Shown here in pieces: positions 15,556-16,041 of a stretch of DNA of 64,000 nt. This DNA comes from Thermoplasmatota archaeon. GTDB taxonomy: Archaea; Thermoplasmatota; Penumbrarchaeia; Penumbrarchaeales; Penumbrarchaeaceae. The number at the start of each line of letters is the position of its first letter. Position 1 is the first letter of the stretch. The stretch lies in the NCBI GenBank assembly GCA_029762535.1, contig JARVGK010000005.1:32001-96000 (forward strand), read 5' to 3'. Both the position numbers and the translations under genes were made by a program. The notes beneath the pieces are model-generated. The model searched no databases. It was not told the DNA's origin and worked only from the letters and a program-made list of their open reading frames with translations.

Positions 15556-15642
15556 GCAGGGGTAGCCAAGCTCGGTCAACGGCACCGGACTTAAGATCCG
15601 GTCCTCAGCGGTTCGAGGGTTCGAATCCCTTCCCCTGCACCA
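15556..15642 (+). tRNA. tRNA-Leu(UAA), CCA encoded
   Basis: GCAGGGG/CCCCTGC acceptor, CCGGA-CTTAAGA-TCCGG anticodon arm, long variable arm, GGTTCGAATCC T-arm. Confidence 0.96.
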
Positions 15643-15673
15643 TATCTAATTTGTTGTAGCTCTAGCGACGCAC

Positions 15674-15807
15674 GGGATTCGAACCCCACTCGACCATAAT
15701 TAAACATCCCGGGGTTCATGGATGATGCGCTAGTGGATTTGACGATATGCTTCATCCATGACGTGGAAAATCTCCGATTTTCCGCAGTCGAATCCCTTCC
15801 CCTGCAC
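15674..15807 (+). repeat. tRNA-Leu-linked structured unit A ending in a 20-bp copy of the tRNA 3' end
   Basis: Inverted T-arm GGGATTCGAACCC at 15674; stems 15681-87/15711-17, 15716-25/15752-61, 15763-72/15776-85; TCGAATCCCTTCCCCTGCAC at 15788-15807. Confidence 0.85.
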
Positions 15808-15868
15808 TCTTTTCTTTACGTCATATTATGATCGATACAGAAAAGAGTGCGTCATAACAATTAGATAC

Positions 15869-15957
15869 GAAAAATGCCCGATGGGCATTTTCCTGGACCT
15901 TTGGACTTGGTATATCGTCAAATTATGGACAGTCCAAAGGTCCCTTCCCCTGCACCA
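15869..15957 (+). repeat. tRNA-Leu-linked structured unit B ending in a third copy of the tRNA 3' end
   Basis: GAAAAATGCCC-GAT-GGGCATTTTCC; perfect 12-bp IR GACCTTTGGACT/AGTCCAAAGGTC; TCCCTTCCCCTGCACCA at 15941-15957. Confidence 0.85.
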
Positions 15958-16041
15958 TATCTAATTTGTTGTAACTCTAGCGAAGCACGGGATCCGAACC
16001 CCACTCGACCATCAAGGAATATCCCGATGTTCATTAATGAT
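15941..16041 (+). repeat. Direct repeat of the tRNA-Leu 3' end, trailer and start of unit A (copy of 15626-15726)
   Basis: 15941-16012 matches 15626-15697 with 3 mismatches in 72 bp, then continues as a degenerate match. Confidence 0.9.

Follow-up and report, generated by a model that had tools for sequence, protein, structure and literature searches.

Main

Copies of a tRNA 3′ end downstream of the tRNA gene are a signature of att sites. Behind the tRNA-Leu(TAA) gene of the window, by which we mean the whole stretch of 64,000 nucleotides analysed here, such copies recur at short intervals and close hairpin-rich units, raising the question of what these units are, whether they act as DNA or as RNA, and how they come to stand behind tRNA genes. 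A preliminary description, made from the letters alone, had offered miniature tRNA-targeting elements or co-transcribed tRNA-like RNAs. We conclude, with a probability of roughly 0.55, that the units are archaeal tRNA-linked repeats behaving as non-autonomous, protein-free DNA cassettes. They consist of length-constrained, covarying inverted repeats held between direct copies of the local tRNA tail; this tail is the site of their gain and loss, and they also move between loci and swap modules.

Structure of the array at tRNA-Leu(TAA)

The tRNA positions 60–73 recur at 15626, 15793 and 15941, which gives a unit of 167 bp (A), a unit of 148 bp (B) and then a truncated A (Table 1). All the repeats listed in the preliminary description of an A-B-A′ array with tail copies were found, including the exact inverted T-arm, the exact 20-bp tRNA copy closing A, the outer 9-bp stem of A (15674–15682/15788–15796), a 12-bp inverted repeat (15804–15815/15839–15850), both B hairpins, the second tail with its CCA and the decayed restart of A after B (88% identity over 101 nt). 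Its unit boundaries needed correction: units and tail copies exist as described, but the period is set by tRNA positions 60–73. What it had taken for a spacer with the 12-bp repeat is hairpin H1 of unit B, whose stem the repeat forms; this hairpin starts inside the tail and is covered by a covariance model, built from 39 B units, that matches 15804–15944 of the window end to end (E 1e-30). Three hairpins had been counted in A, of which the long and the short one stand and the first amounts to a 5-bp stem with a 23-nt loop.

Relative to shuffled sequences, the array region folds with a z-score of −6.6 as RNA and of −9.5 and −8.6 as DNA on the two strands. Since the ORF list of the window holds no ORF of at least 80 aa inside the array, and the gene downstream is syntenic in three relatives, there is no island at Leu(TAA). 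The first 85 bp of unit A have a 99% identical copy behind Leu(CAG), whose tail is the same. An Rfam scan of the region matched the tRNA alone, with no RtT (RF00391) match at E up to 5.

Table 1. Coordinates of the tRNA-Leu(TAA) array in the window and of a second, non-tRNA repeat family
Feature	Position	Strand	Remarks
tRNA-Leu(TAA) gene	15556–15642	+	Positions 60–73 (15626–15639) are the block that gets duplicated
Unit A interior (period 167 bp)	15640–15792	+	AT-rich trailer, inverted T-arm, long hairpin, short hairpin, copy of T-loop 55–59
Inverted T-arm of unit A	15674–15686	+	13/13 complementary to 15617–15629
Long hairpin of A, 13-bp stem	15716–15761	+	Minus strand of the loop bears the family CGTC motif (15737–15748)
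Short GAAAAT hairpin of A	15765–15783	+	3-nt loop is C(GGA)G on the minus strand
First tail copy	15788–15807	+	tRNA 55–74, 20 nt, exact
Hairpin H1 of unit B	15804–15850	+	12-bp stem from tRNA position 71; CGTC motif 15819–15822
Middle hairpin S of unit B	15869–15892	+	Lies between H1 and H2
Hairpin H2 of unit B	15895–15943	+	13-bp stem ends in tail positions 60–62; CGTC motif 15916–15919
Second tail copy	15941–15957	+	tRNA 60–76, 17 bp, CCA included
Truncated, decayed unit A	15955–16041	+	Array stops 10 bp short of the stop codon of a convergent ORF, 16051–16782
TTTATAAA-box repeat family	L304 (G000:C31) 5300–5900, 7560–7860, 12490–12640, 15800–16090, 19200–19370; L305 (C25:48300–48900); L306 (C6:78560–78900); L307 1–420		

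Occurrence in the genome, family and phylum

In the genome of the window, G000, where the window is C58:32001–96000, 21 of the 39 tRNA genes have a tail copy downstream and one has a copy upstream, against 1 of 2580 random windows; the units are built from common modules, yet each bears the tail of its own tRNA. Tail copies accompany 113 of the 180 tRNA loci that we fetched, a sample enriched for occupied loci, and about 180 divergent units, falling into two classes, are available from the family. The B model matches every one of the 24 family genomes, one of the two from the order and another one from the class. Within a 151-genome sample of the phylum it matches two or three further families, one match (E 8e-4) being doubtful, and 129 genomes give none; the genomes searched are MAGs, so a missing match does not prove that units are absent. 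The matches outside the family come from five genomes of other families and are patchily distributed. Similar units, at other tRNA genes and in relatives, and covarying stems, whose absence would have refuted the preliminary description, were both found.

A neighbouring Trm5 gene puts the host among uncultured Thermoplasmatota; the best relatives are MAGs labelled Thermoplasmatales or Thermoplasmatota, and three of these records carry the same units. A metagenome scan with a DNA pattern yielded one extra tRNA-Leu array. In viral contigs, nine pattern matches all proved on inspection to be due to chance and a later search returned none; the phage and plasmid records searched held no tRNA-unit sequences either. 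Occupied and empty genes cannot be told apart by the T-richness 3′ of the tRNA, which is therefore unusable as an argument about termination.

Some loci of this genome depart from the common pattern. Behind tRNA-Gln(CTG) (G000:C25:125600–126000) stand three units of ~124 bp that are nearly identical and have a shorter tail copy. In the tRNA-Met(CAT) array (L308, G000:C29:1000–4400), tail copies bracket a 2.58-kb cargo block, with more units beyond it; the block encodes a 702-aa protein with a His-rich start and a 90-aa His-rich protein. There is also a second, non-tRNA repeat family (Table 1), composed of a TTTATAAA box, GC-rich palindromes and tandem GAAAAT hairpins resembling those in the tRNA units. 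Its members sit between genes resembling toxin–antitoxin and defence genes, and it may represent a cassette array or else a non-coding RNA of large size.

Unit classes, edges and covariation

At position 60, identity to the tRNA jumps to 0.96, from 0.58 at position 59, and it drops after 73; the tail search was keyed on positions 61–72, hence only the edges of this profile are informative. The tail reaches 0–1 nt beyond position 60 in 64 of 69 B units and 4–7 nt into the T-loop in A units, the duplicated block being 60–73 (14 bp) in general and 55–73 for type A. Type B comprises H1 (a 12-bp stem starting at position 71, with a 24-nt loop that carries CGTC), a 17-nt linker, S, and H2 with a second CGTC; its length is mostly 159–165 bp, units overall measuring 90–230 bp. 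Type A runs from an inverted T-arm through a small hairpin, a long hairpin and a short GAAAAT hairpin to the tail copy. Further types, found at Val, Ile, Met, Pro, Ala, Glu and Thr, are assembled from shared modules. Where A and B occur in one array, A comes before B in 10 of 11 cases. Unit lengths show no clear pattern of helical phasing, and we found no terminal inverted repeats common to the units, whose ends are not inverted repeats of one sequence.

In the B stems, 28 of 32 pairs are changed on both sides, amounting to 233 such cells, a level that 0 of 500 shuffles reach and that compares with 25–61 cells in slid controls; these counts, like all the others given here, come from related, non-independent sequences, which overstates their significance. 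H1 follows the discriminator base (A–T in 32, G–C in 6), and the variable base in the inverted T-arm of A fits position 57 of the local tRNA in 42 of 44 A units. At internal tails of B arrays, H2 and H1 close in from both sides and leave positions 63–70 unpaired. In layout, these 12–13-bp stems around an 8-nt spacer bear a resemblance to a 13-8-13 tyrosine-recombinase site.

Folded DNA or RNA

Single mismatches within the unit stems comprise 15 G–T and 22 A–C, against 66 G–T and 2 A–C in the tRNA T-stems of the same genomes; the stem finder penalizes mismatches, so it is the G–T/A–C ratio alone that informs. Among 113 triloops of the units, 31 are C(GNA)G or its complement (17 sense, 14 antisense), compared with 67 of 1003 in bulk genome DNA. 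C(GNA)G forms an unusually stable DNA mini-hairpin. There is a single C(UUCG)G tetraloop in the units. The CGTCR motif occurs 74 times in sense and never in antisense orientation in B, and 5 times in sense and 20 times in antisense orientation in A, and in the window the A and B loops are exact reverse complements over 12 nt. On the minus strand, the B model also matches A (E 2e-6), but scores of this kind are inflated by palindromes (1 of 1000 shuffles was equally good). Both strands of the window array fold equally well as DNA; the B consensus folds at −35.6 in antisense and −31.0 in sense, and tail positions 63–70 in B are without an acceptor partner.

The absence of a G–T bias, the DNA-type triloops on both strands, the reversed motif polarity between A and B and the equal folding of the strands favour units that act as folded DNA over the co-transcribed tRNA-like RNAs of the preliminary description. 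The locus-matched left arms fit RNA pairing with the tRNA and DNA fold-back equally well.

Turnover and movement between loci

Orthologous loci of two relatives, G004 and G010, differ in unit number and type, and at Thr(GGT) the two genomes form a filled/empty pair whose flanks are collinear after the last tail. Depending on the relative, Leu(TAA) carries A, AA, BB, BBB or no unit at all. Val(GAC) and Val(TAC) share a unit at 98% identity, and the Val(GAC) copy has local tails on both flanks and an inverted arm of donor type; in the Val(GAC) array the transferred unit is the tRNA-proximal one, and the arm of the distal unit is nearer to the local tail. An exact Gly(GCC) tail lies inside a Gly(TCC) array, and clear cases of foreign tails are found only within arrays, left of B units (L260, L262 and L041; also C47 and the start of C102). 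Similarity between units is 0.655 within a genus across amino acids, against 0.549 across genera for the same amino acid. Mosaic units (L366; Leu(TAA) of G010 against G015) point to recombination between copies.

Tail mismatches grow with distance from the tRNA (means of 0.40, 0.73 and 1.07), and the last tail is more decayed than the first in 18 arrays and less so in 5 (p 0.011). An older tail is kept by the distal copies in L152 and by all copies in L038. An arm that pairs back on the tail is present after the last tail in 17% of arrays, after the tRNA itself in 81% and at random in 4%; given the 17%, the truncated A that ends the array of the window represents the rarer ending. The proposal of miniature tRNA-targeting elements has thus gained support from the family-wide occurrence, the filled/empty orthologous pair, the 98%-identical unit at two tRNAs with different tails, the foreign tails within arrays and the distal decay.

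Three further loci deserve mention. In tRNA-Leu(GAG) of G002 (L301:453–539) the acceptor has a G6–A67 mismatch and both downstream copies keep the pairing base; the mismatch may be a mutation, a sequencing error or a tail delivered by the last insertion. An insertion sequence at about 61300–62330 of the window, which we take to be IS481-like, has a 301-aa ORF, ends TGTAGAGTAC and a 15-bp duplication, and lies within an inverted tail of the tRNA-Ala(GGC) array. In G000, tRNA-Trp at the end of C53 has an integrase fragment behind it, and an array with Trp tails stands near the beginning of C102; an island has probably inserted between tRNA-Trp and its array.

Search for a mover

Neither a Y1/HUH transposase nor a reverse transcriptase was detected in G000 (93% complete). 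An IS110 element and a serine recombinase are present there and were considered as movers, but are unlinked to the arrays; the serine recombinase gene (window 45501–46364, minus strand) is about 300 bp downstream of tRNA-Cys. The tyrosine recombinases of G000 are one IntI-like recombinase and the integrase fragment at tRNA-Trp. No tyrosine recombinase is common to the family, in which 16 of 24 genomes have any, and canonical XerA was seen neither in G000 nor in most of the family. A 242-aa tyrosine recombinase with only a catalytic domain adjoins arrays in G004 and G009; we set it aside, as it occurs in 7 of 23 relatives, lies beside a tRNA in 2 and was not found in G000. Such proteins of ~240 aa (L169:578–1306, minus strand; L229:562–1281, plus strand) form a small group nearly confined to the host family among the genomes searched. 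We also rejected the 266-aa IntI-like recombinase (L061:1213–2013, G000:C25), which is found in 5 of 16 relatives, adjoins an array once and is unlinked in 8 of 9 loci; it occurs as well in G085 and G147, both without a B-model match. This protein is closest to integron integrases, under the NCBIfam cut-off, and has relatives with attC-like TAAC...GTTA repeats upstream. No other gene family common to the downstream neighbours of arrays was found, and an integrase search of metagenomes gave no match.

No casposase was found in G000, G004 or G010, G000 having merely a CRISPR Cas4–Cas1 fusion; casposase genes are present in three family genomes (G008, G009 and G002). Casposon or casposon-like ends (GGGGTATT...) stand 8–12 bp after tRNA-Leu or tRNA-Gly tails, often past the last tail of an array (L208/L015, L060, L023, L299, L166). 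As a mover of the units, the casposase was rejected on register (a 5-bp overlap against positions 60–73) and on distribution.

Proposed mechanism and alternatives

As DNA cassettes, the units would be recognized in folded form, as single strands or cruciforms, by a site-specific enzyme acting in trans and encoded away from the cassette, which would insert them next to the tRNA. Homologous recombination between units would duplicate, delete and shuffle them, and the left arm could be fitted later to the local tRNA through selection or fold-back correction. Insertion might involve a staggered cut that duplicates positions 60–73, a route directly compatible with the Val case, or else a crossover close to position 60 involving a circle that brings its own tail, which would fit the foreign left tails. 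Several considerations count against the cassette reading: the search turned up no mover, no tyrosine recombinase common to the family and no terminal inverted repeats common to the units; one-step insertion would not lead us to expect left arms matched to the local tRNA (42 of 44); and perfect stems can arise from quasi-palindrome correction without selection.

Under an RNA role, transcription would read through from the tRNA promoter and tRNA-processing nucleases would cleave the transcript at every tail, releasing structured small RNAs like E. coli RrA/B/F; the units would spread by recombination only. E. coli TLRs are indeed transcribed and processed (PMC8144298), type A folds into a multi-arm junction closed by the tail, the RNA fold lies far below shuffles and the left arms are complementary to the local tRNA. 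We nevertheless consider this role unlikely, given the lack of a G–U bias, the few RNA tetraloops, a conserved loop motif on opposite strands in A and B, an antisense B fold at least equal to the sense one and the unpartnered positions 63–70. Host-maintained DNA structures without a dedicated mover, arising by slippage and by unequal or ectopic recombination and kept for a service to the host, for instance as decoys for attachment or as landmarks for protein binding at hotspots of integration, would agree with the presence of units in 24 of 24 family genomes, with the clear mosaics, and with the casposon-like ends and the small integrase gene behind distal tails and the IS inside an inverted tail. 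Recombination alone, however, would hardly bring units to an empty tRNA and duplicate 14 bp of it locally; hairpins enclosed by short direct repeats are expected to be deleted readily, so that persistence at about half of the tRNAs would need re-insertion or strong selection; and the distribution outside the family is patchy. We rank this explanation after the RNA role, as improbable.

Least probable, and to our minds very doubtful, is that the units are scars or minimal derivatives of ordinary tRNA-targeting elements, be they joined att arms of tyrosine-integrase islands or mini-casposons. The tRNA 3′ duplications do match the att signature, and casposases, present in three family genomes, make 14–15-bp duplications at tRNA genes (PMC5137440, PMC4779613). 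Covarying stems of fixed length would not persist in scars, however, and no unit end was found beside an integrase or in the viral, phage and plasmid collections searched. The mini-casposon version is largely refuted: the A. boonei casposon duplication overlaps the tRNA by merely 5 bp (PMC5137440) where the units use positions 60–73, the units are without casposon ends, and G000, G004 and G010 yielded no casposase.

If a trans-acting enzyme does insert folded DNA at many tRNA 3′ ends while repairing the gene, this would constitute a new integration route; otherwise, what remains is a class of repeats, so far without annotation, at the main hotspots of integration in an archaeal family. Immediate testability is limited, as the host has not been cultured.

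Comparison with known systems

Casposons of family 2 (A. boonei tRNA-Pro, Methanosarcina tRNA-Leu) make 14–15-bp duplications at tRNA 3′ ends and accumulate in tandem near the tRNA (PMC5137440, PMC4779613). The archaeal units share the duplication size and the tandem accumulation, and differ in register, in having no terminal inverted repeats and no Cas1-solo or PolB, and in that no casposase was found in G000, G004 or G010. Integron attC sites conserve structure over sequence, and their arrays may lack an enzyme in cis (PMC8946536). Our units resemble attC sites and empty cassettes in conserving structure more than sequence, in probably serving as folded DNA substrates and in forming arrays without a cis-encoded enzyme; unlike integron cassettes, they are anchored on tRNA tails, carry almost no cargo and are structured on both strands. 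The B consensus shows no attC R boxes or consensus boxes, and the IntI-like gene, which falls below the NCBIfam cut-off, is unlinked to arrays in 8 of 9 loci. Islands of tyrosine integrases likewise repeat the tRNA 3′ end downstream, but most tail pairs here enclose neither integrase nor cargo, and the units are 90–230 bp long with conserved structure. A CRISPR array was rejected, as the repeat is the local tRNA tail, the ‘spacers’ are homologous units of 90–230 bp and the CRISPR locus of G000 lies elsewhere.

The closest parallel is the E. coli TLRs, of which RtT, named in the preliminary description, proved an apt comparison. They number 22 sequences at ten loci, their last 18–19 bp being the end of the upstream tRNA or rRNA, and three of them give rise, by processing, to small RNAs with Hfq and CsrA as binding partners (PMC8144298). 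Members include the 178-bp repeats of tyrT/tyrV, RttR (Rfam RtT) and rrA/rrB/rrF (Egan and Landy 1978, Rudd 1999, cited in PMC8144298). Both groups consist of gene-less, similar-sized tandem units after tRNA genes, each closed by the 3′ end of the upstream tRNA. The E. coli tyrT unit order (tail, AT-rich stretch, inverted tail, degenerate inverted T-loop with a small GAACC/GGTTC hairpin, further hairpins, tail) is the layout of type A, and tyrT units also bear sense-strand C(GNA)G triloops. There is, however, no sequence match: no RtT match was obtained here, and the B model misses the tyrT locus. The tail measures 14 bp (60–73) in archaeal B units against 19 bp (58–76) in E. coli TLRs; the archaeal units include a second class, B, which has no inverted T-arm and bears the CGTC motif in the polarity opposite to that in A, and they occupy about half of the tRNA genes and form mixed A/B arrays.

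Our literature search for archaeal TLRs found no paper, most subscription journals lying outside its coverage. Known since 1978, TLRs are described as being without known function (PMC8144298). New here are the two-class design of opposite polarity, the DNA-type pairing signature, the evidence for movement and polarity, and the candidate movers that failed to fit. The ~180 divergent units permit tests, of DNA against RNA action, of the insertion point and of the order of arrival, that are impossible with the 22 near-identical copies of E. coli. The archaeal units stand directly after a tRNA gene, have a 3′ end identical to that of the upstream gene (in the window over 20 bp in A and 17 bp in B, with a core of 14 bp across the family) and occur in one to five gene-less copies per locus; they work like TLRs and fall under the positional definition, while not being members of Rfam RtT. 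A generalization that we put forward tentatively, as a possibility against which the odds presently stand, is that TLRs of both domains form one class of mobile, protein-free DNA cassettes; a trans-acting enzyme would recombine them, in the form of folded single-stranded DNA, into tRNA 3′ ends, and they would build polarized arrays in which the tRNA serves as leader and the tail of the tRNA as repeat.
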